64,000 nt of DNA from a virus. The notes under the pieces were generated by a model. It did no database searches, was not told the DNA's origin, and saw only the letters and a program-made list of their open reading frames with translations. The stretch spans positions 41,785 to 105,784 of the IMG/VR virus record IMGVR_UViG_3300005563_000031; one strand, given 5' to 3'. This document shows, one piece after another, positions 2,144 through 62,394 of the stretch; position 1 is the stretch's first letter; each line of letters opens with the position of its first letter. The position numbers and the translations under genes are program-made.

Positions 2144-2185
2144 TAACACCCGCACTCCTCCTCTCTTATCATAGAAGGGTAACGT

Positions 2186-3975: not shown

Positions 3976-4051
3976 TGGATCACCCGGATGGAATCGAACC
4001 ATCATGTACGATGTTCAAAGCATCGTTGGGATACCAGTAACCCACAGGTGA
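3976..4051 (-). tRNA. tRNA-Gln(TTG)
   Basis: cloverleaf, loop CTTTGAA, encoded CCA. Confidence 0.9.
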
Positions 4052-4054
4052 AAA

Positions 4055-4189
4055 ATGAGTCGATTTGAACGTGTGGTGATCCAACTGCTGATCATTATCG
4101 CTAATAGGGTAGCGCGCAGTGCATCACCTGCAGACAGAATAAACATCGATCACGACGGGTGGCCGATGTACGGCGACAAACCCTTTTAA
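4055..4189 (+). CDS. 44-aa hypothetical protein antisense to the tRNA array
   Basis: ATG..TAA fills the spacer between the two Gln tRNAs; AGGTG upstream. Confidence 0.45.
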   Translation: MSRFERVVIQLLIIIANRVARSASPADRINIDHDGWPMYGDKPF

Positions 4190-4190
4190 A

Positions 4191-4266
4191 TGGATCAGGC
4201 GGTTGGAATCGAACCAACGTGAACTGCGTTCAGAGCGCAGTGGGGATGCCAGCAACCCACACCTGA
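4191..4266 (-). tRNA. tRNA-Gln(CTG)
   Basis: cloverleaf, loop CTCTGAA, CCA. Confidence 0.9.
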
Positions 4267-4274
4267 GAATTTCT

Positions 4275-4457
4275 ATGACAACAGAGAAAACTGCTATTTG
4301 CGGAGCGATCCGGCCTCAAGAAAAGCCTACGTGCCGACGTTCGCAAAAGATTGGCGGGCCGCGCTATGTTTGTGGACGCGAACCGAAGCACGAGGGGCCG
4401 TGCGGCTGCTGGCGGTTTTTGTCGCAGGTCGCTGCTGCGAAATTGGCGGGAAGGTAA
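4275..4457 (+). CDS. small Cys/His-rich hypothetical protein
   Basis: MTTEK...CGREPKHEGPC; occupies the Gln-Trp spacer. Confidence 0.45.
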   Translation: MTTEKTAICGAIRPQEKPTCRRSQKIGGPRYVCGREPKHEGPCGCWRFLSQVAAAKLAGR

Positions 4458-4515
4458 GGAGTTGCACCCTACTTTTGGGGTTTGGAGTCCCATAGCTCGC
4501 TCCGAGCACCGACCC
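4444..4515 (-). tRNA. tRNA-Trp(CCA)
   Basis: loop CTCCAAA, CCA; two acceptor mismatches; T-loop TGCAACT. Confidence 0.8.
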
Positions 4516-4523
4516 GTGAAACT

Positions 4524-4886
4524 ATGCCTATCTACGGTAGTCTAACACTACGCGCACGAATACTGGCAAACGATGAGCCGGCGTGGTTGAAAAAGCACGC
4601 ACGCCGCGATTACATCGTGCAAGTACATCTTGCCACACCACGCTGGTACTCGCGTAAAGAAGTCGTACGGCTTAAGCAGAAGGCGCACGAGCTGTCGAAA
4701 GCGAAACGACGCAAGTACGTACTGGACCACATCATCCCCCTCACACACAAGCGCGTATGCGGTTTAAACGTACACCACAATATGCAAATCATCGATGCCG
4801 GCACGAATGCGCGCAAATCCAATCACTGGTGCGAGTGGCACGGGGAGTTATTCGCGGAACCTGAGCAGTTTCCACTGTTTCGATAG
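4524..4886 (+). CDS. HNH endonuclease
   Basis: ATPRW...DHIIPL...VCGLNVHHNMQII...NARKSN. Confidence 0.8.
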   Translation: MPIYGSLTLRARILANDEPAWLKKHARRDYIVQVHLATPRWYSRKEVVRLKQKAHELSKAKRRKYVLDHIIPLTHKRVCGLNVHHNMQIIDAGTNARKSNHWCEWHGELFAEPEQFPLFR

Positions 4887-4887
4887 C

Positions 4888-4972
4888 GTGCCGGGCGCCG
4901 CGTGCCCATCGGTGCTAGGAAGTTTTGTGGCCCGCAAGCGGGGAAGATTCCTACGACGGGACGCCCATGCAC
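4888..4972 (-). ncRNA. rod-like structured RNA candidate
   Basis: nested helices GGGCG/CGCCC, CCCGTCG/CGATGGG, TAGGAA/TTCCTA, CCCGC/GCGGG. Confidence 0.5.
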
Positions 4973-4974
4973 TC

Positions 4975-5063
4975 TGGCGGAAGGCAGTGAACTCGAATCA
5001 CAAACGCTTATCGCGTTCCATCCGCTTTCCAAGCGGCTCGAGGCCCTGCCTCGTTTACCTTCC
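4975..5063 (-). tRNA. tRNA-Ser(GGA)
   Basis: long variable arm, G73, CCA. Confidence 0.9.
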
Positions 5064-5068
5064 AATGT

Positions 5069-5157
5069 TGGCGGATACCGTAGGAGTCGAACCTACACGG
5101 CCCGTTAAGACCCTAACACCGCTTTCAAGGCGGGCGAGCGCGCCAGTGCGGGTATCC
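5069..5157 (-). tRNA. tRNA-Ser(TGA)
   Basis: long variable arm, loop CTTGAAA, CCA. Confidence 0.9.
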
Positions 5158-5165
5158 GAAAAGTA

Positions 5166-5223
5166 GGTGAGGCCCGGTGCAGCGGATAGCACTTGGACAG
5201 GTGCGTCCACACCGGGGGTCACC
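5166..5223 (-). ncRNA. structured RNA candidate (hairpin with possible pseudoknot)
   Basis: GGTGA/TCACC, CCCGGTG/CACCGGG, TGGAC/GTCCA; loop GCAC complementary to downstream GTGC. Confidence 0.45.
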
Positions 5224-5231
5224 GAGCAGCT

Positions 5232-5275
5232 GAACCGGAACTGCGCTTGTTCCTTACTGGCCTTTCGGCCGGTTC
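5232..5275 (-). ncRNA. three-way-junction RNA motif, copy 1
   Basis: GAACC-[GGCC GAAA GGCC]-AGTAA-[GGAAC..GTTCC]-GGTTC; 22 nt identical to copy at 6119-6140. Confidence 0.65.
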
Positions 5276-5292
5276 GTTTGCGAGTATAAGGG

Positions 5293-5383
5293 CACTTGCG
5301 CGCGGGTGCAGTCGCTTACTGCACCTTGCGTCACGACCAACGCGCAGCAGGAGCGACACTGCCGCCATGGCGTCTAGCAAGTG
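5293..5383 (-). ncRNA. multi-branch RNA with kissing loops
   Basis: closing stem CACTTGC/GCAAGTG, four internal hairpins, complementary loops TCGCT and AGCGA. Confidence 0.55.
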
Positions 5384-5388
5384 TTTTC

Positions 5389-5476
5389 TGGCGGATGGCA
5401 ATGGAGTCGAACCACAAGCGCTTGCGCACTCCATCTGTTTTCGAGGCAGTGCTGACACCGTGTCAGTTTACCATCC
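5389..5476 (-). tRNA. tRNA-Ser(CGA)
   Basis: long variable arm, loop CTCGAAA, CCA. Confidence 0.9.
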
Positions 5477-5490
5477 GTAAAATCTAAGGC

Positions 5491-5567
5491 GGTTAGGTTT
5501 AAGTAGGGGGCAAACCCTTACCCGGCGCCGGGCCCAGCATCACCGCAAGCCCCTACCAGTCTTGACC
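5491..5567. ncRNA. structured RNA candidate (strand uncertain)
   Basis: GTAGG(GG)/(CC)CCTAC closing stem; CCCGG/CCGGG and GGG/CCC hairpins. Confidence 0.35.
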
Positions 5568-5589
5568 AGCAAGTACCGGTAGGAATGTT

Positions 5590-5678
5590 TGGCGGAAAGC
5601 AGTGTACTCGAAACACACACCCGTTAGGATGCCCTCTGTTTAGCAAACAGGTACGAGCGCCTGCCCGTTTTACTTTCC
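5590..5678 (-). tRNA. tRNA-Ser(GCT)
   Basis: long variable arm, loop TTGCTAA, CCA. Confidence 0.9.
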
Positions 5679-5684
5679 GTAAAT

Positions 5685-5763
5685 TGGTCCCCGCAGCAGC
5701 TTGGGGAGCTGCGACCGTCCGGTTAAAAGCCGGATGCTCTTCACCCGTGTGAGCTATACGAGG
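5685..5763 (-). tRNA. tRNA-Lys(TTT) with non-canonical T-loop
   Basis: loop CTTTTAA, all stems intact, CCA; T-arm GCAGC-TCCCCAA-GCTGC. Confidence 0.8.
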
Positions 5764-5769
5764 AATGTT

Positions 5770-5845
5770 TGGTGCTCAGTGATGGAGTTGAACCATCTAT
5801 CTCCGCGTTACGAATGCGGCGCATCGCCGGCAATGCTTACCGAGC
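5770..5845 (-). tRNA. tRNA-Thr(CGT)
   Basis: loop TTCGTAA, CCA. Confidence 0.9.
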
Positions 5846-5945
5846 TTATCGGAATAAGAAGACTGTACCAAACATGCTCGCACCATCGGCAGCAAAACAC
5901 CGCGCGCCATCCTCGTAGTCGTTTGCCGCACTGTCTGCAGTTCAT
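5808..5945 (-). CDS. 45-aa putative zinc-finger protein
   Basis: MNCRQCGKRL...FCCRWC; 3' end overlaps tRNA-Thr. Confidence 0.35.
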   Translation of the reverse strand: MNCRQCGKRLRGWRAVFCCRWCEHVWYSLLIPISSVSIAGDAPHS

Positions 5946-5959
5946 GTTGGAATTATACA

Positions 5960-6034
5960 TGGAGCCCCACGTTGGACTTGCGCCAACCCTCGCTACTTAC
6001 AAGGCAGCTACACCGCTATCTGTGTTTGTAGGGC
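5960..6034 (-). tRNA. tRNA-Thr(TGT)
   Basis: loop CTTGTAA, CCA, T-loop CGCAAGT. Confidence 0.85.
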
Positions 6035-6042
6035 GAAAAGTA

Positions 6043-6087
6043 CCGCCGAGCCCCTGTGCACACGCAGGTATTGGAAAGGCCCGGCGG
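6043..6087 (-). ncRNA. bulged hairpin RNA candidate
   Basis: 10-bp stem CCGCCGGGCC/GGCTCGGCGG, 9-nt bulge, apical hairpin. Confidence 0.4.
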
Positions 6088-6099
6088 ATTTTGCAATTA

Positions 6100-6140
6100 G
6101 AACCAGACGCTGGCGCCTTTACTGGCCTTTCGGCCGGTTC
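6100..6140 (-). ncRNA. three-way-junction RNA motif, copy 2
   Basis: same core as 5232-5275 with a different but still pairing P3 (AGGCG/CGTCT). Confidence 0.65.
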
Positions 6141-6159
6141 AATATGCATACTAACATGT

Positions 6160-6235
6160 TGGTGCCTCACCGACGAATTGCACGTCGCGCCTCATCTTTA
6201 CCAAAGATGCGTTCCGCTCGCAGAACTTGAGAGGC
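6160..6235 (-). tRNA. tRNA-Thr(GGT)
   Basis: loop TTGGTAA, CCA. Confidence 0.9.
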
Positions 6236-6242
6236 AGTAAAT

Positions 6243-6316
6243 TGGCCTCCACGGTTGGACTCGAACCAACAACAGCAAGCCTTCGGAGGGCTCGCGCCGT
6301 ATCCGACGGCGTGGAG
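6243..6316 (-). tRNA. tRNA-Arg(CCG)
   Basis: loop CTCCGAA, short D-arm, CCA. Confidence 0.85.
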
Positions 6317-6323
6317 TTTAAAG

Positions 6324-6397
6324 TGGCACCCCCGGTTGGACTCGAACCAACATATCTGCCGTTCGTAGCGGCGGATCCTTGTTCCGAAGGCAGGGGC
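6324..6397 (-). tRNA. tRNA-Arg(ACG)
   Basis: loop CTACGAA, CCA. Confidence 0.85.
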
Positions 6398-6409
6398 GTA
6401 GAAAACTGT

Positions 6410-6474
6410 CCGGCGGCAGTAGGCGCGAGTACGGCTTGCGCTTTCGCCGCGCACTTACCTTAAAGGCCTGCCGG
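6410..6474 (-). ncRNA. structured RNA candidate
   Basis: CCGGC/GCCGG closing stem; apical CGGC-GAAAGCGCAA-GCCG. Confidence 0.4.
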
Positions 6475-6482
6475 TATGGCCG

Positions 6483-6653
6483 TTACACCGGTTTGTAAAG
6501 GGCTTGGTAGTAAAATAAATGGTTTAGCGTGTCTGAACACAGGCGCTCGCACACTGCCACACCACCGGCCAATAACCACCCTTTGTTTAGGTAGTCAGTG
6601 ACTTCGTTATTAAAGTACTGCAAGTTTGTGTTACTTACTACGATGTATTTCAA
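6483..6653 (-). CDS. DUF1737-like small protein (56 aa)
   Basis: TTG start; KYIVV...FNNEVTDYLNKGWLLAGGV...YYQAL resembles DUF1737; absent from the ORF track. Confidence 0.65.
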   Translation of the reverse strand: MKYIVVSNTNLQYFNNEVTDYLNKGWLLAGGVAVCERLCSDTLNHLFYYQALYKPV

Positions 6654-6656
6654 TGT

Positions 6657-6752
6657 TGGTACTCGATGTAGGATTTGAACCTAACCCGTTGCAGCCAGTC
6701 CGACCGCTCTCGCACGCTTATAAGGCGCACCCGCACACCAGTGCTATCGAGT
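6657..6752 (-). tRNA. tRNA with TAT anticodon (Ile) and long variable arm
   Basis: acceptor ACTCGAT/ATCGAGT, loop CTTATAA, ~27-nt variable region, A73, CCA. Confidence 0.8.
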
Positions 6753-6764
6753 ATTGCTCCTTTC

Positions 6765-6840
6765 CGAGGGGCGGCGGGCAGTGTAGTTAGCGACGCTACA
6801 CTGAGTTGGGAGCTACCCAACCAACCCCGCAGGCCCCTCG
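6765..6840 (-). ncRNA. three-way-junction RNA with kissing loops
   Basis: CGAGGGGC/GCCCCTCG plus GCGGG/CCCGC; hairpins GTTGGG/CCCAAC and CAGTGTAG/CTACACTG; loops TAGC and GCTA. Confidence 0.6.
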
Positions 6841-6850
6841 TACTTCTTTG

Positions 6851-6927
6851 TTGCGGTAGCTGGACTTGCACCAGCCTTAAATCGGCTTATGAAACCGTGG
6901 CGAAACTACCTTCGACCATATACCGCA
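6851..6927 (-). tRNA. tRNA-Met/Ile2(CAT), no encoded CCA
   Basis: loop TTCATAA, acceptor TGCGGTA/TACCGCA. Confidence 0.8.
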
Positions 6928-7099
6928 AAATTGTGCCCGCTTCGCTTTTCATTTCGTGGCAACGGACTAACACGCGGTGGCACCTATCAGCTCCCTACAT
7001 GCATGCAACGCATTTGGGCGGGGATGGAGGCAGGGGTTAGGGAATGCGCATGTCTAGAATACGCCAATACACCTAAAGCCGTACCAACACCCCCATACC

Positions 7100-7174
7100 T
7101 GGTAGCGGGAGAGGGATTCGAACCCCCGACCTTCTGGTTATGAGCCAGACGAGCTACCTCTGCTCTATCCCGCA
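7100..7174 (-). tRNA. tRNA-fMet(CAT)
   Basis: loop CTCATAA, 1:72 mismatch, CCA. Confidence 0.9.
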
Positions 7175-7183
7175 TCAAACAAT

Positions 7184-7239
7184 GCCGCGTTCCTCTTATA
7201 TACCGGATACGCGGCCAACCCGGTATTGCAATTCGAGGA
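7184..7239 (-). ncRNA. H-type pseudoknot RNA
   Basis: S1 ATACCGG/CCGGTAT, S2 GCCGCGT/ACGCGGC, loops 4/2/9 nt, purine-rich L3. Confidence 0.6.
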
Positions 7240-7314
7240 GGTGCTGTTGGGACTATCCTACAGGAGAACAAAGGACAGACCGGACTTATGGACGCTACGT
7301 GTCCCAACAGCACC
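7240..7314 (-). ncRNA. RNA closed by a perfect 14-bp terminal stem
   Basis: GGTGCTGTTGGGAC/GTCCCAACAGCACC around a 47-nt loop. Confidence 0.55.
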
Positions 7315-7344
7315 GACAACCGAACTATACAGCGAACTTTGAAT

Positions 7345-7419
7345 TGGTGCCTCGAGAAGTGCTCGCACCTTCGTATCTGGGTTTTCAGGCCAGCGCTACT
7401 CTGTCTCAGCTATCGAGGC
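7345..7419 (-). tRNA. tRNA-Phe(GAA)
   Basis: loop CTGAAAA, CCA, atypical T-loop. Confidence 0.85.
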
Positions 7420-7425
7420 AAATAC

Positions 7426-7511
7426 TGGTCCTCACGGCTGGACTTGCACCAGCACGCCGGTTAAGGCACAGCGTTCTCAACACTGCGTGTCTGCTGTTTC
7501 ACCACGCGAGG
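7426..7511 (-). tRNA. tRNA-Leu(GAG)
   Basis: long variable arm, loop TTGAGAA, CCA. Confidence 0.9.
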
Positions 7512-7518
7512 AATAGTT

Positions 7519-7767
7519 TCAACGGATCGTTTCAATAGTCTTACCATCCTCGTTCATAATGTAGGCGACGTTGTAGGAACAGGACTGGTCCATTCCCACT
7601 GTTACCTCTGTAGTTTCACCCGGTGCGTCGCCGCACTGTATAACCGCGCACAAGTTTTCCTTGTACGTTACGTGGACGGCTTTCGCCTCACGCACTGATA
7701 TCGCTTCTGTGTATGAGGGCTTAGCGGGCGCTTCTGGCCCGTACTTATAGAATTTTACTGTCAACAT
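7519..7767 (-). CDS. hypothetical protein
   Basis: ORF fills a tRNA spacer; C-terminal AYIMNEDGKTIETI. Confidence 0.75.
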   Translation of the reverse strand: MLTVKFYKYGPEAPAKPSYTEAISVREAKAVHVTYKENLCAVIQCGDAPGETTEVTVGMDQSCSYNVAYIMNEDGKTIETIR

Positions 7768-7797
7768 AGTCTACTCGTCCTACTACTGCTAAGAAAC

Positions 7798-7881
7798 TGG
7801 TACCTCTGGTGAGAGTTGCACTCACACACCTTGCGGCGCCGGAATTTGAAGCCGGTGCGTCTGCTGTTCCGCCACAGAGGC
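7798..7881 (-). tRNA. tRNA-Leu(CAA)
   Basis: loop TTCAAAT, variable arm, CCA. Confidence 0.9.
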
Positions 7882-7887
7882 AAAAGT

Positions 7888-7964
7888 TGGTATCCCCGGC
7901 GGGAGTTGCACCCGCAGTTGAACGGATTTTAAGTCCGCTGTGTCTGCTATTCCACCACGAGGAT
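7888..7964 (-). tRNA. tRNA-Leu(TAA) with short variable loop
   Basis: loop CTTAAAA, 77 nt, CCA. Confidence 0.85.
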
Positions 7965-7967
7965 GAA

Positions 7968-8038
7968 TGGGCACCCACGGTTGGAGTCGAACCAACGCTG
8001 GTAGCTTAGGAGGCCACTTTCGTTCCGCCGACGTGGGT
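7968..8038 (-). tRNA. tRNA-Arg(CCT)
   Basis: loop CTCCTAA, shortened D-arm, 3' end GCCCA. Confidence 0.75.
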
Positions 8039-8039
8039 A

Positions 8040-8201
8040 TCACAGATGAACAGTACCTGCGACTACGGTAATGGCGAGGATAAGGCAGATCAGCAGCACC
8101 GCAATGTGCAGCAGTGGGCCCGGTTTGCCTATCATCGACATGATCGTGATGATCGCAGCGGCGATCAAAAATACGAGAACGAGAATTGCAGCAGCACTCA
8201 T
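8040..8201 (-). CDS. 53-aa two-TM membrane protein
   Basis: AAGGAG SD; two hydrophobic helices. Confidence 0.7.
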   Translation of the reverse strand: MSAAAILVLVFLIAAAIITIMSMIGKPGPLLHIAVLLICLILAITVVAGTVHL

Positions 8202-8259
8202 GTTGGAAACTCCTTTTCTAACACGGGTGGGCGGTAGCAAGTAACGCTCCCGACACAGC

Positions 8260-8332
8260 TGGCACCCTCGGTTGGAGTCGAACCAACAGTCTGCGGCTTA
8301 GAAGGCGCGCTACCGATCCGGCCGGCGAGGGC
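8260..8332 (-). tRNA. tRNA-Arg(TCT)
   Basis: loop CTTCTAA, CCA. Confidence 0.8.
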
Positions 8333-8338
8333 GAAGGG

Positions 8339-8410
8339 TGGAGCGGAAAATGGGAGTCGAACCCATCAGCGGCGTCGTTGGCAACGATACCTCACACCAT
8401 GTGCATCCGC
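8339..8410 (-). tRNA. tRNA-Gly(GCC)
   Basis: loop TTGCCAA, U73, CCA. Confidence 0.85.
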
Positions 8411-8418
8411 ATGTTCAG

Positions 8419-8556
8419 TTCTTTCGTCCGTCCCACTGTTGCATTATGGGCAACCACCCGAGAGGATTTGCCGCTACCTCTGACATCTCCCACTTAAAGG
8501 AGGGAGCGCTCTGGTGCTCTGAGCTACGAGTGTTATCAACAGTCGCCACGAAAGAA
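8419..8556 (-). ncRNA. stalked tRNA-like RNA 1 (core 8454-8533)
   Basis: D-arm GCTC/GAGC, 10-nt anticodon loop, 11-nt T-loop, no CCA; flanks pair ACTGTTG/CAACAGT and TTCTTTCGT/ACGAAAGAA. Confidence 0.7.
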
Positions 8557-8558
8557 TT

Positions 8559-8634
8559 TGGTGCATGCTGTTGGATTCGAACCAACTGCCTCCCGGTTAT
8601 CAGCCGGGTGCGCATCCGTATGTGCCTCGCATGC
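8559..8634 (-). tRNA. tRNA-Ile(GAT)
   Basis: loop CTGATAA, CCA. Confidence 0.9.
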
Positions 8635-8643
8635 GAAATAGAT

Positions 8644-8744
8644 GTGGGTATTTGTCCGGCACCCACCGAGCCGTGCGGCTATTGCAGCGTAACCGCGACA
8701 CCTCCAGCGCTTGCATTGGCACTGGACCGGGCCGTTAAAGGTGT
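8644..8744 (-). ncRNA. multi-hairpin RNA candidate
   Basis: TCCAGTGC/GCGCTGGA, AGCCG/CGGCT, GTGGGT/ACCCAC, ACACC/GGTGT. Confidence 0.35.
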
Positions 8745-8856
8745 AGTGAAGTAGGATGTTTGGATTTGCACCAAGACCTCTGTTATTCCGCACGTCTGCG
8801 GATTCGACAGTGCTCTTCTATGACTGAGCTAACACCCTACATATTCACTATACCTT
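8738..8856 (-). ncRNA. stalked tRNA-like RNA 2 (core 8752-8839, no anticodon loop)
   Basis: 8-bp acceptor, 4-bp T-stem, D-arm; anticodon arm replaced by long hairpin; flanks pair TAGTGAA/TTCACTA and AAGGT/ACCTT. Confidence 0.7.
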
Positions 8857-8861
8857 GAAGT

Positions 8862-8936
8862 TGGTCGGAGTAGTAGGAATCGAACCTACCTTGTCGTGCT
8901 CCCAAAGCACGCGATCAGCCACTGACCCACACTCCG
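8862..8936 (-). tRNA. tRNA-Pro(TGG)
   Basis: loop TTTGGGA, C1-G72, CCA. Confidence 0.9.
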
Positions 8937-8993
8937 ATGGCGAGTGTCTCTCCGCTCCTGTCACGCCTGGATCGCCCGGCGTTCGGCATTGGC

Positions 8994-9071
8994 TGGTGCG
9001 GGTAGCAGGATTTGAACCTACGGCCCCGTGCGCCCGAGGCACGTGCTCTGACCAGACTGAGCTATACCCAC
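8994..9071 (-). tRNA. tRNA-Pro(CGG)
   Basis: loop CTCGGGC, CCA; G1-C72 instead of C1-G72. Confidence 0.85.
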
Positions 9072-9081
9072 ATGTTAGAAT

Positions 9082-9158
9082 TGGAGCACCCGGCCGGACT
9101 TGCACCGACGATTTTAACGCTTTGCAGGCGCCTGCATTTGCTGCTCTGCCACGGGTGC
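9082..9158 (-). tRNA. tRNA-Cys(GCA)
   Basis: loop CTGCAAA, U73, CCA. Confidence 0.9.
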
Positions 9159-9162
9159 GTGT

Positions 9163-9236
9163 TGGAGGGTCGTAATGGAGTCGAACCATTTATGGAGTCC
9201 GGTCACAGCGGAGTCCGGCTACCGAGCCAACGGCCC
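9163..9236 (-). tRNA. tRNA-His(GTG), atypical
   Basis: loop CTGTGAC, CCA; no G-1, U73. Confidence 0.75.
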
Positions 9237-9243
9237 ATTGTTT

Positions 9244-9327
9244 GTGCCTTCCCGCGCACGGCTTGCGGCCGGTCGATCGCGTGGCGCGAGTCACGGCGCA
9301 CTCCGAGGTGCGCTGGGCTTGATCGAC
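9244..9327 (-). ncRNA. structured RNA candidate
   Basis: GTCGATC/GATCGAC, GCGCAC/GTGCGC, CGGC-CGCAA-GCCG. Confidence 0.45.
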
Positions 9328-9332
9328 AAAGT

Positions 9333-9420
9333 TGGTACCTCTGGAGGGAATTGCACCCCCATGCCGTTTTACGGGCGCTGCGGTCTGAACGCAGTGTGTC
9401 TTCTGTTTCACCACAGAGGC
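9333..9420 (-). tRNA. tRNA-Leu(CAG)
   Basis: long variable arm, loop TTCAGAC, CCA. Confidence 0.9.
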
Positions 9421-9429
9421 AAAATGAGC

Positions 9430-9561
9430 ATTAGGACAGTGCGCTGGTGCCGCGTTGGCATTCGCGCAAACCTCCGTTAGACAGCGCTATCTAACATCAT
9501 CGATCCTGCTTTATACAGCTTGCATAGCCCCACTCGATATGGGACACGGCACTGTCCTAAT
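9430..9561 (-). ncRNA. 132-nt multi-branch RNA closed by a perfect 13-bp stem
   Basis: ATTAGGACAGTGC/GCACTGTCCTAAT; internal hairpins; loop ATCGA complementary to TCGAT. Confidence 0.6.
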
Positions 9562-9562
9562 T

Positions 9563-9637
9563 TGGTAGACCGTACGGGATTCGAACCCGCCTAACATGCT
9601 TGAAAGGCACGTTGCATCACCGAGACGCATACGGTCC
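9563..9637 (-). tRNA. tRNA-Glu(TTC)
   Basis: loop CTTTCAA, CCA. Confidence 0.9.
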
Positions 9638-9648
9638 GTAAAATTTAA

Positions 9649-9789
9649 GTGGCTCTGGCGCATAGGGGTACTCGTGTGAGGCGCATGCGCCACTGGCGGA
9701 GACAGGTACCTGGCACGACTTACGCACCGTTGCTGCGTCGTAACCTGCGCTGGCTTGCCAGGCGAGAGCGGTCTGTGCGGCAGAGCTAC
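9649..9789 (-). ncRNA. ~140-nt structured RNA candidate
   Basis: GTAGCTCTG/CAGAGCCAC, CCTGGC/GCCAGG, ACGAC/GTCGT, TGGCGCATG/TATGCGCCA. Confidence 0.5.
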
Positions 9790-9812
9790 TAAGTATACCG
9801 CACGACAAACAC

Positions 9813-9890
9813 TGGTAGACGTGACGAGACTCTAACTCGTTAGGCTACGGTTGAGAACCGCACTGCGCGAGACACTTTGCATTCACGTCC
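9813..9890 (-). tRNA. tRNA-Glu(CTC)
   Basis: loop TTCTCAA, CCA. Confidence 0.85.
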
Positions 9891-9898
9891 ATAAAAAT

Positions 9899-9970
9899 TG
9901 GTGGAGCTGTCGGGAGTTGAACCCGCAGGGTTTCCTTGCAAGGGAGACCCGTTGCCCGCAACACAACCCC
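9899..9970 (-). tRNA. tRNA-Ala(TGC)
   Basis: G3:U70, loop CTTGCAA, CCA. Confidence 0.9.
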
Positions 9971-9986
9971 GTGGTTCTTTGGTCTA

Positions 9987-10053
9987 GCCCAACATCTGAC
10001 GGCTGGGCAGGCGCACATAACAGCAACGTCACCGGTAATTAACTGCTACATGT
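9987..10053 (-). ncRNA. two-hairpin kissing-loop RNA candidate
   Basis: TAGCAG/TTGCTG and GCCCAGC/GTTGGGC hairpins; loops TGACG and CGTCA. Confidence 0.5.
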
Positions 10054-10072
10054 TGATCGCTTTTCGACTTAC

Positions 10073-10148
10073 TGGTAGGCCGCCAGGGATTCGAACCCTG
10101 GACCAACTGGTTAAGAGCCAGCTGCTCTTGCCGCTGAGCTAGCGACCT
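10073..10148 (-). tRNA. tRNA-Lys(CTT)
   Basis: canonical cloverleaf, loop CTCTTAA, CCA. Confidence 0.95.
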
Positions 10149-10156
10149 ATAAAGTT

Positions 10157-10244
10157 ACGCTTCCGGTCATCTGCGCCGAATATCCCGTGGGCTAGTACCC
10201 ACATGCTACAGGACATGGACGGGCGTACAGAGCCGGACTTGCGT
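10157..10244 (-). ncRNA. stalked two-hairpin RNA with possible pseudoknot
   Basis: ACGC/GCGT, TCCGG/CCGGA, TCTG/CAGA, CGCC/GGCG; loop TCCTG vs CGGGA. Confidence 0.5.
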
Positions 10245-10246
10245 TC

Positions 10247-10337
10247 TGGTGCGTCGCGGATGGAATCGAACCTCGTGCCCTAAAGGGACCTGGTTTACAG
10301 CCAGGCGAGCGGCCACCACTCCTTACTTGCGCAACGC
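10247..10337 (-). tRNA. tRNA-Tyr(GTA)
   Basis: loop CTGTAAA, long variable arm, CCA. Confidence 0.85.
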
Positions 10338-10342
10338 ATGGT

Positions 10343-10414
10343 TGGTACCCGATGTGAGGATTGAACTCACTCCACCAACTTTGTAGGAGTCGGCGCCGTC
10401 CCAACGGTCCGGGC
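10343..10414 (-). tRNA. tRNA-Val(TAC)
   Basis: loop CCTACAA (C33), CCA. Confidence 0.8.
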
Positions 10415-10420
10415 ATAAAC

Positions 10421-10648
10421 AAAAAGGATGACAATAGGCGTGCATCAGACGCCTCGTTTTACGTCACGGCTCGCGCCGCTTGGCTAGCTGCTCGCAGGTG
10501 GTCCGTAGACCACCATTTTCGTCACCGCTTCTACCAGCGGCTCCTCGAACGTCGTTAGGCCGACTACCCAGCCAATTCTCGTATCCTCAAAAATCGTTGA
10601 CGACCTATTTTTTATCGTGGTCAGCCGTCAGTGTTTTCCAGTCCTTTT
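10421..10648 (-). ncRNA. ~230-nt large structured RNA candidate
   Basis: terminal AAAAGGA/TCCTTTT, ACGGCT/AGCCGT, TTGGCTGG/CTAGCCAA, GGTGGTC-TACG-GACCACC, AGGCGT/ACGCCT, CCGCT/AGCGG. Confidence 0.6.
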
Positions 10649-10720
10649 TGGCGCCTCCAACGGGACTCGAACCCGTCACCCACTCGATAGACAGTCGAGT
10701 TTCACCCCAGGTGTAGAGGC
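10649..10720 (-). tRNA. tRNA-Asp(GTC)
   Basis: loop CTGTCTA, G73, CCA. Confidence 0.85.
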
Positions 10721-10736
10721 AGGTTCTAACACTTAG

Positions 10737-10810
10737 CTGTAGGCCTGGGGCTCGAACCCAGCGCATCTCCGTTAACAGCGGAGCCTACACGCCCGGTGCA
10801 GTTGCCTACA
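10737..10810 (-). tRNA. tRNA-Asn(GTT), no CCA, acceptor extended by leader-trailer stalk (10725-10823)
   Basis: loop CTGTTAA, G73; flanks TCTAACACTT/AAGTGTTAGA. Confidence 0.85.
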
Positions 10811-10825
10811 GCAAAGTGTTAGATT

Positions 10826-10899
10826 TGGAGCGGACGGTGGGAATCAAACCCACCTCATTGCGTTGGAAGCGCAAGGCCCAGTCACTAGACCACGCCCGC
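10826..10899 (-). tRNA. tRNA-Gly(TCC)
   Basis: loop CTTCCAA, U73, CCA; first tRNA of the operon. Confidence 0.9.
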
Positions 10900-10919
10900 T
10901 CAAACCTAAATGTCAACCG

Positions 10920-10934
10920 AATTGTTAAAGAACG
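10920..10934 (-). promoter_or_regulatory. boxA antitermination element
   Basis: CGTTCTTTAACAATT, close to rrn boxA TGCTCTTTAACAATT, 20 nt before the first tRNA. Confidence 0.7.
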
Positions 10935-11017
10935 TCCGGTGATTTAGTTTGGGGGTGTTGGAAGGAGAGCGGTTGCTTTCCTTTTTGGCCCCCGTCCTGC
11001 ACCGGGGGCAGGAGGGA

Positions 11018-11146
11018 TTAGAGCTTGGTACCTTCGAGTCGGGGCGCTGTTGGCATAATATTCCAACTATCGCGCCCAAACGTCGCCGCGACGACACATT
11101 GCTGCGCCGGATAGGCTAGACGTGAAGGTACTAAGGATCTAAACAT
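11018..11146 (-). CDS. leaderless 42-aa leader peptide of the tRNA operon
   Basis: MFRSLVPSRLAYPAQQCVVAATFGRDSWNIMPTAPRLEGTKL; ATG 6 nt after the -10 box. Confidence 0.6.
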   Translation of the reverse strand: MFRSLVPSRLAYPAQQCVVAATFGRDSWNIMPTAPRLEGTKL

Positions 11147-11152
11147 GTCTAT

Positions 11153-11182
11153 ATACTAAATTCGATTCGATACACATTGCAA
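11153..11182 (-). promoter_or_regulatory. sigma70-like promoter of the tRNA operon
   Basis: TTGCAA-18 nt-TAGTAT, just downstream of a terminator. Confidence 0.65.
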
Positions 11183-11192
11183 GTACTTTCGT

Positions 11193-11222
11193 AAAAATGC
11201 CGGGAGTGGTCAGCTCCCGGCG
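11193..11222 (-). terminator. intrinsic terminator ending the late operon
   Basis: GCCGGGAG/CTCCCGGC hairpin followed by ATTTTT. Confidence 0.7.
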
Positions 11223-11233
11223 AAAGTTACGGA

Positions 11234-11368
11234 CGTATAGCGCAGTGGAAAACCTCGAGAACAACAACACCGAAACTCGAGGCCCATGGTCTGTGCGCGT
11301 CAACATCCGGCAGTCGACACCTACAAGGGAGGTCGTAAGTGTTTTACCGACTGCATTACAACTATACG
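11234..11368 (-). ncRNA. ~135-nt branched RNA candidate
   Basis: CGTATAG/CTATACG, GCAGTCG/CGACTGC, CCTCGAG/CTCGAGG, GCGCA/TGCGC. Confidence 0.5.
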
Positions 11369-11372
11369 CGCG

Positions 11373-11672
11373 TCACCAGTAGTAAACGTGTGGCCGGCGG
11401 TAGCTCGGGAAATTAAGGCTGTCCGGATCGCGACCCAGCTCGATAAGCCGTTCAAGTTGATTTGACCGGATACGCGCGGGGCGAATGTGCATCGTGCGAT
11501 TCCACTCGCCGGAGGGCTCGGTCATAATTTGCAAACGCTTGTTGGGGTGTTGCTCATAGCGATACACATCCGGACGATACCAACACGGACGGTAGTAGCC
11601 GTAAGCAATGAGAATACGCACACGATGTGCACGTGCAACGCGCTGCTGCCAGCGCCGTAAGGATCGCTTCAT
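11373..11672 (-). CDS. Arg-rich hypothetical protein ending RPHVYYW
   Basis: GGGAG SD; basic ORF. Confidence 0.75.
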   Translation of the reverse strand: MKRSLRRWQQRVARAHRVRILIAYGYYRPCWYRPDVYRYEQHPNKRLQIMTEPSGEWNRTMHIRPARIRSNQLERLIELGRDPDSLNFPSYRRPHVYYW

Positions 11673-11771: not shown

Positions 11772-12218
11772 CTATACCGGATAGGCGCCGGTGAGCAAAT
11801 AGTTAGCAAGCCGATTCGCGCGCTTTTCATGCACCTGCGTGCGCCACTTGCTGTTCAACAATTCGTCGTGCGCCGCCTTCCAGTTATGGAGCCGGATCGC
11901 GGCTCGCGTATCGACAAATCCCAGCCACCTCCCCGCACCCATGTTGAAACACAATTCAACCACCGCGTTGCGCCGACAATCCGTATCCAAGTACGGCCAC
12001 TCCGGTGTCCGCTCCGCGCCCGCGAGTGCCTTCTGTAAATCCACTGTACGCCAATTATCCGCTTGCTGTTGGGTGATCGTGTACCCACTCCACTGTAGCA
12101 TGGGGTCTAGTCTGTGTCCCCACCCGACGGTCCACCATCCTTCGGTGTCGACATAGGCGGTAAGTTCGCACCGCTCGCTGGTGTTGATATCCCTAATAAG
12201 CCGTGCATCGAAGTCCAT
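11772..12218 (-). CDS. endolysin, GH24/T4-type lysozyme
   Basis: E...AYVDTEGWWTVGWGH, FNMG, ELLNSKWRTQV..RA.RL. Confidence 0.9.
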   Translation of the reverse strand: MDFDARLIRDINTSERCELTAYVDTEGWWTVGWGHRLDPMLQWSGYTITQQQADNWRTVDLQKALAGAERTPEWPYLDTDCRRNAVVELCFNMGAGRWLGFVDTRAAIRLHNWKAAHDELLNSKWRTQVHEKRANRLANYLLTGAYPV

Positions 12219-12454
12219 TTTCCATCCTTGCCCCGGAACCGAGCTTCTGGACGTGGGGTGTGGTGAATTACTTTCCGTGTAACAATTTCAATCGAGTGGT
12301 ATTGTGGATCCAACTGCCCCTCAATCGGCTCGTGGTCGGGCGGTGCGTTATTGCGTGCAAAAGCCTGCACCTGCTCCTCGTTCGCATGATTCGTGCTCAC
12401 GAAACTGTCGTGAATTACGCCTGTGTCTTTATGGTAAAAATGAAAGTGTCTCAT
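12107..12454 (-). CDS. hypothetical protein (tail-fibre-assembly-like position)
   Basis: ATGA-coupled to J; 3' overlap with endolysin. Confidence 0.55.
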   Translation of the reverse strand: MRHFHFYHKDTGVIHDSFVSTNHANEEQVQAFARNNAPPDHEPIEGQLDPQYHSIEIVTRKVIHHTPRPEARFRGKDGKWTSMHGLLGISTPASGANLPPMSTPKDGGPSGGDTD

Positions 12455-15400
12455 CGAATTACAAACTCTATATCTACGACCACCGAGCCGTAATTAATTG
12501 TTTGACTGCCGGAGGACGGTACTACAATGGCAGTGCCGCCTGTGATGAAATTATAAAAGCCCGCTTTATACGTAAAGGGTAACATGGCTTGCAAAGTAAT
12601 GGATTGGACAGCGCCGCTGCCGGTGGGAACGACTTGCAGGGGTGTAAAGAACGCGCTTTGGGCGACAGCGGGATCATTGCCTACAATGGGCGATCCGGTC
12701 GGGGAGTTAGACCACTGCCGCAGCCCCCACACACCCATTTTTATATCACCAAACGTACCTGCTACCTGCGCCGCGTTCAGTGTCGCGGTAATGATCATCG
12801 TACAGTCGTAATTGGGAGCGGGTGTTGCGTTGAGATACGAGAAGTACCACGTGCCCGCCGGATTCGTTACACCGGTGGTGGTGGTGGAAACGCCACCCGA
12901 AGCAATGAGCGTGGCCGCGTTATTGCGAATTTGTACGGTATCTTGGAAGAGTGCATCCGGTGTAGGACCGTAGTCCACGGAGTTAATAGCTGCGCCTACA
13001 GCGTAGAAACTCGTATCCAAATACACTGCCGAGCCGGTCGGTACGCCCAGTGACGCACCGGTCGCTGAATCTAGTACCGATCCATTTTTCAAAAATCTGA
13101 AGGTAGTCCCGTCCCACGTCACCCCCAGCACATCGGTTGTGAGGTAAGCAGCGCCCGCCGTAACGCCTGTTCCATTTTTGAAAATGTAAAGGGCACCGCT
13201 TACTGTACAATCAATCGCCGCTGTAATTGTGCTGTAACCAGAATCAAGTCCCGGCCTTACCCCCAATCCCACCATTACGTCCGTTAACGCACTTACCTTC
13301 CAAAACACGTGCGCTGTAGGATATCCCTCAAGCGAATACACATCCGCATTCCAACCCGCCGTCGTGTTGGCAAGGTTTTTAGCAAATGTGACCCCATTTA
13401 CTGACGTGCCGTTGCGGGCAACAAAAGGAGTGGGGGTGGCTGGATTCAACAATCCAAAATAAACGTTGTCGAATACGAAGTTGGGCGAGTTCAACGAACA
13501 ATCAAAATACAGCGACTTACCGGGAGCCGGTATTGTTCGCCAATTAATGTTGTCGGCAAAGTAGGTAACAAATTTACCGTCGTACCGTATCTCGAGTAGC
13601 GTGTCGGTAGTAGCGGTAATGGGAATCGTATCAACCAATCCCCCATTTTCATAGATTTGGTAAAATCCACCCGACACGTACCACGCGTAATCCAGTGACG
13701 CGAAACTCTCATCGGTAAGGGGGTCTGAATTTAACCCAAACATGCCGTACAACATAGGCGTGCGCGTAACCACCCGAGCAACACAACCGCCCGAAAGCGC
13801 ATCCTCGCTATAGCAATCTGAATCCCATGCGGCGGCGGCGTTTAACTTCTTGTAAATTTGATTGCCCGTGCATACCGCGCTGTTGCGCGCCACTAACGGC
13901 AAAGCGCCCGGTGCTTCGAGCACACCTGCGTTCTGCCCTTGGAAAAAGCCCTGGTATGCAACTTCCTCTGACAGCGAGCGTACGCCTCCACCAAACAAGT
14001 TGAATGAAACAAACTTAGCCCAGAACGGCAGCCCCGCGTAACCGGGATCAAAAGCGAGCCGGAAAATGTCCTGGTCAATAACGGCAAAATTGCTGCCCGC
14101 CGGATGCGCAACAGTGTTCGTACTACCGTATTTACCACGCCGAAGGTATGTGAGCACAAACGCGTTGTCACCTAACGCCTGGGCCGTCTGATAGGAAATA
14201 ATTTCTCCATCCACGATGCACGGTGTTAGAATATTGTCCGCATCCGCCCGTGTACCTGAAGTCATTGTTAGAGGGCTAGACTGAAGTAATTGCACCGACA
14301 CGCTGTTGGCGGTATCGGGGTCATTCCCCGCTGGTAGCAACTGCGTCGTCGTGCCATAACGACTTGGCGCATCCACCACACCCACACGCCAATACGTGAT
14401 ATTGTCGAGCGACAAGTACACCCCGCACCCGCCCCATTCGCCCCCCGCACCGCCTACCGCAATCCCCAGCTCATACCCGTTTGAAGCGGGCGCCGCGAGC
14501 GAGGGCGGGAATGTGAACATGTAGGGTTTAGCAACAGGTCCCGGATCACCTAAGAAGTTCTGCACGTAGGCTTGTGCAAATTGATTGTTGTAAAGGGGCG
14601 CGGCGGCCGGACCAACAACCATTTCCTCCGCGATAATTTCAATCGTGTCATCAGGATTGTCGGTAACGTCCGTAATGCGCACGAGCTGATTAACAATGCC
14701 CATCCGGCTATCGTTGATCGCTATAAGGTCCATCGGCTCAAGCAAACAAAAATCCGCCCGCAACTTGAAAGCAAACGTATTGCGGATGTACAGATTGCGG
14801 TTACACATCAACGTGGCAATTTGATGCGCAACTGCTCGGTTCTTAATCAAATGCAGCGAAACAGCAGACTGCACCCGCAAGCCGTTTGTTGCGACGTCCA
14901 ACTCGTCGCGATACTCCGCAATGGCCGTGTTGTATTGGTTTGTGCGATCAAGGAATTCTATCCGCCAACAGTTAAAGGTCTGATTGGCAGGGATAATAGA
15001 CACCGTAACGGGCGCCGAGGTGCCGGTGTTAGGATCTATCGCATAGTCACTGTCGTCAATCGAGTAAAGTGGTGTTAGATTTGGAGTATAGGTAACTCCA
15101 TTACCCGTAATCGCCGTATCACCATATGGAACAAATCGCAAGCCTGTACCCGGCGACCACACGCAGTTGCTATTAGTCGCTTGCAGTACTTCGTTGATAA
15201 AGTCCTGCGCGGCACGCTGCTGCTGTTCACAGGCTGAGAAAAAGAAGTTGTTGGCTGTGCAGTAGGTTTGGAACTGATCACTATCTACCGGAGCAAGATA
15301 AGGGAAATTCGCCCCGTGATTGGGATCTGTGCAATAGTCAACAAGAAACACCGCCGGATGCGCATCCATTGTGCTTGTGTAAAGGCACATACCGGATACT

Positions 15401-15876
15401 TCAAACGTGTAATTCGGTAATCCAGCCGAACTCCCAAGGTCTAAGTTCGGCGCTGCAATGTAGGCGGAGTGGTCATAGGGCAGTGCGTGATCAAGGTGGT
15501 GTTGGGTCATGTACGACCACGGTGCTTGTGCGCCAGCACCGCTAAAAAACACCATATTCTGTGCGGCCAACGTCGTTACGCTTTGGTTGTTGAAAACCGC
15601 CGTAACGGCCGGCACCGGTCCCTCGCACAACAAACCCATGACCGAAGCGCTGTAGTCGTAGGAACTCGAAGTCTTTGACCCGCCGCCCTTGCCGCCTTGC
15701 TGTTGAGAAACGGGTGTTGCGGTGAAGTCAACATAATCAATCAAAATCATCGGCAACCGGTCTGTACCGTACAACAACGGAATGCAATTGCCGTAGGAGG
15801 ACTGGTTGATCTGGATTGAATTGAGCCGAGTAGGTGCTTTACTTTGCGGCTGTTTAGAGGAGAAAATGCCGCCCAT
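12451..15876 (-). CDS. tail tip/host-specificity protein (J-like) with C-terminal repeated beta domains
   Basis: SSYGNCIPLLYG, GLLCEGP, LPNYTFEV, LRRGKYGS; follows NlpC. Confidence 0.85.
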   Translation of the reverse strand: MGGIFSSKQPQSKAPTRLNSIQINQSSYGNCIPLLYGTDRLPMILIDYVDFTATPVSQQQGGKGGGSKTSSSYDYSASVMGLLCEGPVPAVTAVFNNQSVTTLAAQNMVFFSGAGAQAPWSYMTQHHLDHALPYDHSAYIAAPNLDLGSSAGLPNYTFEVSGMCLYTSTMDAHPAVFLVDYCTDPNHGANFPYLAPVDSDQFQTYCTANNFFFSACEQQQRAAQDFINEVLQATNSNCVWSPGTGLRFVPYGDTAITGNGVTYTPNLTPLYSIDDSDYAIDPNTGTSAPVTVSIIPANQTFNCWRIEFLDRTNQYNTAIAEYRDELDVATNGLRVQSAVSLHLIKNRAVAHQIATLMCNRNLYIRNTFAFKLRADFCLLEPMDLIAINDSRMGIVNQLVRITDVTDNPDDTIEIIAEEMVVGPAAAPLYNNQFAQAYVQNFLGDPGPVAKPYMFTFPPSLAAPASNGYELGIAVGGAGGEWGGCGVYLSLDNITYWRVGVVDAPSRYGTTTQLLPAGNDPDTANSVSVQLLQSSPLTMTSGTRADADNILTPCIVDGEIISYQTAQALGDNAFVLTYLRRGKYGSTNTVAHPAGSNFAVIDQDIFRLAFDPGYAGLPFWAKFVSFNLFGGGVRSLSEEVAYQGFFQGQNAGVLEAPGALPLVARNSAVCTGNQIYKKLNAAAAWDSDCYSEDALSGGCVARVVTRTPMLYGMFGLNSDPLTDESFASLDYAWYVSGGFYQIYENGGLVDTIPITATTDTLLEIRYDGKFVTYFADNINWRTIPAPGKSLYFDCSLNSPNFVFDNVYFGLLNPATPTPFVARNGTSVNGVTFAKNLANTTAGWNADVYSLEGYPTAHVFWKVSALTDVMVGLGVRPGLDSGYSTITAAIDCTVSGALYIFKNGTGVTAGAAYLTTDVLGVTWDGTTFRFLKNGSVLDSATGASLGVPTGSAVYLDTSFYAVGAAINSVDYGPTPDALFQDTVQIRNNAATLIASGGVSTTTTGVTNPAGTWYFSYLNATPAPNYDCTMIITATLNAAQVAGTFGDIKMGVWGLRQWSNSPTGSPIVGNDPAVAQSAFFTPLQVVPTGSGAVQSITLQAMLPFTYKAGFYNFITGGTAIVVPSSGSQTINYGSVVVDIEFVIR

Positions 15877-61261: not shown

Positions 61262-61300
61262 CGCGGAACTCCGGTTTGGTTGTGAACTCGACTTGCAGAT

Positions 61301-61329
61301 AGTATATAGACTAATTATCTAATCTGCAA
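61301..61329 (-). promoter_or_regulatory. strong sigma70 promoter (copy 1)
   Basis: TTGCAG-17 nt-TATACT. Confidence 0.8.
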
Positions 61330-62322: not shown

Positions 62323-62365
62323 GATGCGGAACTCCGGTTTAGGTGAATACTGCTCGACTGGGAAT

Positions 62366-62394
62366 AGTATATAGACTATCTATCTAGGATGCAA
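62366..62394 (-). promoter_or_regulatory. strong sigma70 promoter (copy 2)
   Basis: TTGCAT-17 nt-TATACT. Confidence 0.8.

Follow-up and report, generated by a model that had tools for sequence, protein, structure and literature searches.

A short open reading frame, alternative helices and a ribosomal-type boxA in the leader of a phage transfer RNA array

Leader of the array and its homologs

The window examined here is a stretch of 64,000 nucleotides (nt), bases 41785–105784 of the complete 105,784-bp IMG/VR virus record IMGVR_UViG_3300005563_000031, and the sequencing runs containing this DNA are rhizosphere and soil metagenomes, with no RNA run listed among them. Its minus strand carries a long array of transfer RNA (tRNA) genes, and the subject of this work is the leader that precedes the first of them. 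A sequence-only reading of the window had described here, in order, a terminator, a promoter, an ATG, a short open reading frame (ORF), competing helices, a C-rich tract, a boxA and the first tRNA, and all of these were located where that reading had placed them (Table 1).

Table 1. Features of the leader, the tRNA array and the neighboring genes (window numbering unless marked as genome).
Feature	Position	Strand	Remarks
−35-like hexamer TTGCAA	11182–11177	minus	
−10 box TAGTAT	11158–11153	minus	18-nt spacer from TTGCAA
12-mer TAGTATATAGAC	11147–11158	minus	−10 box plus six bases up to the ATG
Leader ORF	11146–11018	minus	42 sense codons plus TAA; ATG at predicted start site; no Shine-Dalgarno sequence
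Helix A	TCCTGC 11013–11008 with GCAGGA 11000–10995	minus	5' arm 7 nt after first stop-codon base
Helix B	GCCCCCG 11009–11003 with CGGGGGC 10994–10988	minus	overlaps helix A; no U-tract behind
Small hairpin III	10962–10983	minus	GGAAAG...CTCCTTCC
C/A-rich, G-poor tract	10941–10961	minus	holds second C-run CCCCC 10955–10951; candidate Rho loading site
boxA GTTCTTTAACA	10933–10923	minus	perfect match to GYTCTTTAANA; extended 17-mer 10933–10917
Leader strand of leader-trailer helix	10904–10940	minus	overlaps boxA
First tRNA, Gly(tcc)	10899–10826	minus	Gly(tcc) also first in L079 and L110
tRNA array	3976–10899	minus	32–33 detectable tRNAs, structured spacers
Trailer strand of leader-trailer helix	3941–3973	minus	3 nt after last tRNA
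Intrinsic terminator	11221–11199	minus	8-bp stem, 7 GC, then ATTTTT; tail ATTTTTACGA
Lysozyme	11772–12218	minus	
Long tail protein	12451–15876	minus	Phage-tail_3/Rcc01698_C
Other copies of TAGTATATAGAC, window	61300–61311, 62365–62376	plus	
Other copies of TAGTATATAGAC, genome	31206, 34095, 34520, 35960		

The ORF of the window was found to use 35 distinct codons and 19 of the 20 amino acids (no His). The first codon to recur is that at position 19, each of the four Pro codons is used, and AGA, TTA and CTA stand at codons 3, 5 and 10, in agreement with the earlier counts (42 codons, the first 18 all different). The probability of at least 35 distinct codons was 0.03 for uniformly drawn codons, 0.05 for dinucleotide-shuffled versions of the ORF and 0.02 for open 42-codon windows taken from the non-coding array, and that of at least 19 amino acids was 0.065 against dinucleotide shuffles. 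The features of the window exceed chance only when evidence from within the genome and from other phages is added.

Scanning of IMG/VR for the boxA 17-mer revealed arrays directly behind it in several phages, and two of these, L079 and L110, were found to have homologous heads. The homolog sample consists of these two short contigs, each ending inside its array with no trailer included. The order Gly(tcc)-Asn-Asp-Tyr-Lys(-Ala) is common to the window, L079 and L110 and their leaders can be aligned between the GC hairpin and the first tRNA, while the upstream genes are unrelated. Among the matches to the DNA pattern TCACC-N-boxA, L079 and L110 alone had tRNAs behind them, and a scan for boxA joined to the exact tRNA start gave no matches. 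L165 and L166 were considered as further leaders and were rejected as coding DNA.

The sequence-only reading had staked itself on an ORF also being carried by homologous arrays, and one was present in both L079 and L110. The three ORFs are 42 (window), 36 (L079) and 32–35 (L110) codons long, none has a Shine-Dalgarno sequence, those of L079 and L110 begin 0–4 nt from the predicted start site, and in all three leaders the stop codon lies 7–9 nt upstream of helix A. In shuffled sequences, a start codon no more than 5 nt from the start site together with a frame open to helix A occurred with P of 0.03–0.07 per leader, and a stop beginning 6–9 nt before helix A with P of about 0.002 per leader. 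The ORF of L079 holds 20/20 amino acids in 36 codons (P 0.007, dinucleotide shuffles kept open) and that of L110 holds 19/20, with P of 0.018 for 35 codons and 0.006 for the 32 codons counted from GTG. For distinct codons the corresponding values were 0.055 (window), 0.029 (L079) and 0.023 (L110). Combining L079 and L110 by Fisher's method, that is without the discovery sequence, gave about 1e-3 for amino-acid coverage and about 6e-3 for distinct codons. A soil strain variant (2024 metagenome, run X5) covering 10918–11281 carries 12 substitutions and one deletion (11249), and its ORF is without an indel.

Related arrays had been expected to keep their coding diversity despite divergent peptides, and this was borne out by L079 and L110, with coverage of 19–20 of the 20 amino acids (mean of shuffled sequences about 16) and 21–29% identity among the leader peptides, M1 and one Gly being the only invariant residues. 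The repetition of a single codon that marks classic attenuators is absent, as had been noted for the window; the three leaders instead hold 19–20 amino acids and 29–35 distinct codons in ORFs of 32–42 codons. Coverage of amino acids describes the conserved property no less well than coverage of codons does.

An ORF shared by three homologous leaders might also be the gene of a small phage protein that has a function of its own and stands before the tRNAs by coincidence, and a weak W-N-x-x-P resemblance among the three peptides would agree with this. We consider this very improbable: identity is low, with two invariant residues, and a conserved spacing between stop codon and helix would not be expected of a free-standing gene. 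In addition, Pfam gave no family for the peptide, and the only match in a search of 1.84 billion representatives was a repeat protein judged spurious, although that library lacks the window's own ORF and the result is thus a weak negative.

Alternative helices behind the ORF

Helices A and B overlap and are therefore mutually exclusive. Helix A is formed by different sequences in the three leaders (TCCTGC/GCAGGA, GCGTGGC/GCCATGC and CTCGGA/TCCGAG), yet all 18 of the 18 cells are paired, with compensatory changes in five of the six pairs, whereas slid controls were 28–56% paired. The arms of helix B are conserved in sequence and 94% paired over the same leaders. The C/A-rich tract, which is set apart from the stop codon by helices A and B, shows 21 C vs. 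10 G in 58 nt, a composition kept in L079 and L110, and its second C-run, found in 3/3 leaders, is able to pair with the helix B G-run. In the fold predicted for an unblocked leader, helix A is present and the G-run is bound by the second C-run, leaving the C/A-rich tract closed. When 13 nt from the stop codon were blocked, mimicking a terminating ribosome, helix B was predicted to form and the tract to be open.

The possibility that the switch hides or exposes boxA was considered and rejected, the predicted unpaired probability of boxA in L079 and L110 being 0.43 in both states. For the window, a difference (0.89 vs. 0.63) was seen with a shorter construct only, and the value was otherwise 0.57 in both states.

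A further leader of this kind was found in L159, which has an unrelated array of 25 tRNAs with Gln first. A TTGACT-17-TATAAT promoter is followed, 6 nt later as in the window, by the ATG of a 40-codon ORF with 20/20 amino acids. The last codons of this ORF, GAGGGTTTTGG, pair with CCAAAACCCTC, which is the 5' arm of a terminator (CCCTCTG...CAGAGGG plus TTTTTT), and the identical boxA 17-mer and then the tRNAs come after this terminator. The logic of L159 appears from its sequence to be the classical one, in which a ribosome at the end of the ORF would break the antiterminator and a delayed ribosome would permit read-through. An ORF with 19–20 amino acids, a switch at its end and the boxA 17-mer are thus common to L159 and the soil-phage leaders of the window, L079 and L110. 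L159 differs in having a textbook antiterminator and a U-tract terminator, neither of which occurs in the other three, where a relay of C-run, G-run and C-run is found instead. It is by analogy with L159 that the helix B state of the window is read as the putative "off" state.

boxA, promoter and genomic setting

The boxA of the window is the sole match to the consensus (PMC5725501) on either strand of the 105.8-kb genome and fits the gamma-proteobacterial form of it. Its first base is 34 nt upstream of the first tRNA, and 23 nt separate its 3' end from that gene. Of 401 Pseudomonadota genomes sampled, 19 contain the extended 17-mer with at most one mismatch, as a rule in several copies, and in the three genomes that were checked it lies in the spacer between the 16S and 23S ribosomal RNA (rRNA) genes, shortly before the 23S gene. 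One of these, G076, is identical at 17/17 positions. In G076 the bases after boxA, AATTCGGAAG...GCTAGGC, form pairs with GCCTAGC...CTTCCGAATT immediately past the 23S gene, so that the boxA-AATTCGG leader pairs with a CCGAATT trailer around 23S. The leader and trailer of the tRNA array likewise form a helix, with 30 pairs and −39.1 kcal/mol (shuffles gave a mean of −14.0 and a standard deviation of 3.0, z about −8), and the trailer is the best partner of the leader strand in the 7.3-kb transcript, the next best reaching −28.6. Leader-trailer helices of pre-rRNA have a parallel layout (PMC10250234). The 3' half of the leader therefore looks like a mimic of an rRNA spacer. The boxA reported by the sequence-only reading stands as such; it is better read as one part of this mimic, together with a leader-trailer helix which that reading had not noticed.

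The complementarity of 20–30 bp between leader and trailer might instead be a DNA-level inverted repeat of a mobile tRNA cassette, with boxA incidental. The arms bracket the array exactly, and relatives of about 50–60 kb exist without any tRNAs. There is, however, no target-site duplication at the ends of the arms, a bacterial rRNA operon shows the same boxA-AATTCGG/CCGAATT pairing around its 23S gene, and no fewer than five other arrays have the boxA 17-mer at their head, with a further occurrence inside the L088 array, all of which makes a cassette origin a far-fetched explanation.

These other boxA-led arrays are those of L064/L129 (which have near-identical leaders), L079, L094, L110 and L159, and in L088 the 17-mer stands before tRNAs within the array. 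The arrays of L094 and L064/L129 are led by boxA without a leader ORF, which makes the ORF an add-on and not a necessity. In L094 (12800–12870, minus strand) a TTGACA-17-TATAGT promoter abuts boxA, and in the jumbo-phage contigs L064/L129 boxA follows a terminator. In L079 (5701–5724) and L110 (3493–3517) boxA is part of an AU-rich, self-complementary hairpin (AUUGUU-CUUU-AACAAU) with a U-rich stretch behind it; a terminator scanner found the L079 hairpin to be terminator-like, and the version of the window pairs less well.

The promoter of the window scores only 8/12, a grade of site that occurs 2.9 times per kb per strand, and the ATG at 11146 lies 6 nt past its −10 box. The 12-mer TAGTATATAGAC, which includes this −10 box, is present in exactly seven copies in the genome, with TTGCA upstream of all seven at 0, 10–11 or 19 nt. 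In the other six, a conserved CCGGAGTTCC Shine-Dalgarno region and an ATG follow 40–56 nt later, and the genes behind them are small and of unknown function. About 100 nt are conserved among these sibling elements (GCTTGCA-N11-TAGTCTATATACTA, about 25–40 nt, CCGGAGTTCC, ATG), and the copy at the tRNA array is the only one without a following Shine-Dalgarno region. A DNA-pattern scan with the sibling-promoter motif gave no matches. The near-palindromic core of the element, a 14-mer, varies in position and may lie over the spacer, the −10 box or +1, for which reason it looks like an operator. Besides holding the −10 box, TAGTATATAGAC is thus probably also an operator, and it looks, as far as can be judged from the sequence, like that of a phage regulator that would also control the tRNA array.

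Promoters predicted by scanner in the homologs (TTGACC-17-TAGAGT in L079 and TTGAAC-17-TAGAAT in L110) share with the window a TAGnnT −10 box. The seventh base after it is the A of the ATG in the window, lies 3 nt before the ATG in L079 and lies 1 nt before a GTG in L110, where the in-frame ATG overlaps the −10 box. In the window, the transcription start site, which like the others is a prediction, is probably the A of the ATG or a base only a few nt away.

Upstream on the minus strand, the genes for the tail protein and the lysozyme are followed by an ORF of 99 amino acids and then by the terminator, the leader and the array. The terminator closes the upstream late/lysis genes. A sub-threshold SgrS-like match of Rfam at 11192–11377 probably reflects the terminator hairpin located in its 3' part; Rfam gave no match inside the leader, the 5' domain of which has no paralog in the genome. 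Among GenBank phages the leader had no match and the array showed only generic tRNA similarity. Searching IMG/VR proteins with the 99-amino-acid protein and the tail protein alone returned no relatives, and alignments of the tail protein (IMG/VR, JGI, GTDB) gave relatives of at most 54% identity, none with nearby tRNAs. Closer matches to the tail protein, P0002 (79% identity) and P0003 (65%), occur in Logan assemblies. Five complete relatives of 52–63 kb have zero tRNAs.

The sequence-only reading had described an operon of 38 tRNAs, a count that was not reproduced. ARAGORN detected 23 tRNAs by default and 32 at a relaxed threshold and Rfam added one, giving about 33, of which the last is Gln(ttg), ending at 3976. 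Odd tRNA-like genes occur within the array at 8260–8332 and 8750–8840, those listed by ARAGORN including one with a two-base "anticodon" and a 91-nt tRNA-Gly(tcc) called only at the relaxed threshold. The 588-nt stretch 10148–10736 contains a single weak call, a tRNA-Tyr at 10251–10335. L079 and L110 have, matching this stretch, a tRNA-Asp between Asn and Tyr, which the array of the window may have lost or may carry as a degenerate copy. Closed multi-stem folds were found in the spacers 9430–9561, 7240–7314 and 6765–6840 (z −3.95, −4.71 and −4.58), and no such folds in 9649–9789, 8644–8744 and 5491–5567. On the plus strand (908–3691), genes for an HD-domain/VWA protein and a family-5 glycoside hydrolase (the cellulase family) converge on the end of the array.

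A proposed translation-set switch and its relation to known systems

The reading that we favor, at odds only a little better than even (about 0.55), is that translation of the leader ORF sets the helix A/B switch and with it the access of Rho to the C-rich tract, and that at boxA the polymerase then becomes termination-resistant. The array would have its own promoter behind the terminator, and ribosomes would translate the short ORF without a Shine-Dalgarno sequence, the peptide itself being irrelevant and the ORF serving to sample nearly all 20 amino acids. A ribosome arriving at the stop codon in time would cover the 5' arm of helix A, so that helix B would form and the C/A-rich tract would remain single-stranded. 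With a delayed ribosome, one halted at whichever codon, or none at all, helix A would be the first to form, and the freed G-run would close the tract with the downstream C-run. An open tract would allow Rho to end transcription before boxA and a closed one would let the polymerase pass. Host Nus factors at boxA would then produce a termination-resistant polymerase over the 7-kb untranslated array, and the ends of the array transcript would pair in the manner of pre-23S rRNA. On this reading of the sequences, the phage probably ties its tRNA production to the performance of ribosomes.

A number of observations weigh against it. Taken alone, the ORF of the window is not significant (P about 0.05); ATG ORFs of at least 42 codons occur at 2.2 per kb per strand within the non-coding array, its codon usage scores below 97.6% of real-gene windows, it is not gene-called in any collection, and its peptide returned only the spurious match described above. 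The comparison is based on two homologs, both short contigs, all start sites are predictions and the start contexts differ, with the ATG at +1 in the window, a 3-nt leader in L079 and a GTG at +1/+2 in L110. The ORF region is also tightly folded in the window and in L110 (z −3.9 and −3.5), which could mean that it is a non-coding RNA domain and would hinder leaderless initiation.

Several of these points would fit a purely non-coding leader, in which a structured 5' RNA is followed by the rRNA-type boxA and the leader-trailer helix, the open frame being a by-product of balanced base composition and helices A and B an RNA-only or protein-binding element. The ORF segment of the window folds as a closed three-way-junction domain (−50.2 kcal/mol, z −3.88) that resembles the three closed spacers of the array, its codon usage is non-genic, such ORFs are frequent in the array, the peptide has no relatives and a Shine-Dalgarno sequence is missing, whereas the six sibling promoters all feed genes led by one. 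An ORF in the same place in both homologs, with its stop 7–9 nt before helix A and with 19–20 amino acids in 32–36 codons, is not what this explanation predicts. Moreover, strong folding of the ORF region is missing in L079 (z −1.15) and L159 (z −0.6), while the ORF and its coverage are common to them. As L110 is the only other leader to show it, structure cannot explain the conservation of the frame. An earlier negative reading, that the ORF was a chance occurrence in a structured rRNA-like leader, has been demoted to a rival on account of the homologous leaders, and we now regard it as unlikely.

No intrinsic terminator was found between the ORF and the first tRNA (11018–10900), where helix B is followed by CAAAAAGG, and the leader is for that reason not an attenuator of the trp/his type, and the output of its switch is putative. 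For loading of Rho, the 38–62 nt of free tract in the three leaders are few, and the predicted accessibility of boxA does not depend on the state of the switch. A ribosome could also set the A/B switch with RNA folding, processing or stability as the output and not termination; the freed C-run might, for example, bind the 5' strand of the first tRNA as well as the leader arm belonging to the long-range helix. In the folds predicted for all three leaders with the stop codon occupied by a ribosome, the downstream C-run is bound to GCGGG, which lies at the 5' end of tRNA-Gly, and the lack of an intrinsic terminator also agrees with such an output. These are, however, minimum-energy predictions, and the unrelated L159 ends in a clear terminator, pointing to transcriptional control for the class, so that an output of this kind seems decidedly improbable. 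Termination dependent on Rho is retained as the favored output, and the interpretation given by the sequence-only reading can be upheld in part: the conserved ORF, its coverage and the switch support it, and the lack of an intrinsic terminator does not.

That reading had gone further and proposed a general tRNA-damage sensor. In a wider form, the leader would respond, with no intrinsic terminator, to translation capacity or tRNA damage at large: any delay of the ribosome would flip the relay and hide the Rho site, the polymerase would reach boxA and transcribe the full replacement set of tRNAs, and the phage would answer host anticodon nucleases or starvation in this way. We regard this extension as possible but doubtful. 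Phage tRNA arrays are now seen as a counter to host defenses that cleave tRNAs (PMC10264068, PMC11555353). Full-text literature searches found no description of boxA with tRNA arrays, or of leader peptides or attenuators with phage tRNAs. If the proposal is true, the single-amino-acid attenuator has been turned into a general read-out of decoding capacity, placed before the genes that restore this capacity, and translation gates a 7-kb array whose subsequent transcription and excision resemble those of an rRNA.

Among known systems, the leaders trpL, hisL, leuL and pheL of Escherichia coli and Salmonella have, as is predicted for the window, a short ORF at the 5' end, with the position of the ribosome choosing between exclusive helices past the stop codon. 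Attenuators of the trp/his type carry a run of one regulatory codon, whereas the ORF of the window has nearly every amino acid once or a few times. The window differs from them also in having a putatively (nearly) leaderless ORF with no Shine-Dalgarno sequence, in lacking a GC hairpin with a U-tract and in that the controlled genes are tRNAs. The closest published case is that of the leaderless polycysteine short ORFs which act as attenuators in mycobacteria (bioRxiv 10.1101/834739). These share with the arrangement proposed for the window a leaderless short ORF as a translation-dependent regulator of downstream genes, but they respond to a single amino acid via repeated Cys codons, their targets are protein-coding and they belong to a different host group.

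In tnaC-tnaAB and speFL, a ribosome stalled at the stop codon by a conserved arrest peptide masks a Rho site (PMC8429421, PMC12360218). The likeness to the window lies in a stop codon that adjoins the regulatory RNA, a C-rich, G-poor tract and boxA after it, and no need for an intrinsic terminator. The peptide of the window is not conserved, however, and it is the relay of helices A and B between stop codon and C-rich tract that would do the masking. The downstream half of the leader resembles rRNA operons, with their NusB/NusE-bound boxA and pre-23S helix (PMC5725501, PMC10250234), in its perfect consensus, its 17/17 spacer identity and its AATTCGG/CCGAATT pairing. Here, in place of 23S, about 33 tRNAs over 7 kb are enclosed, a putatively translated ORF and a switch lie upstream, and the helix strand overlaps boxA, whereas boxC of the 16S leader lies 18–19 nt after boxA. 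To the leader-peptide systems the window would thus add a version without a terminator, joined to a copy of the host rRNA spacer boxA and to a leader-trailer helix.

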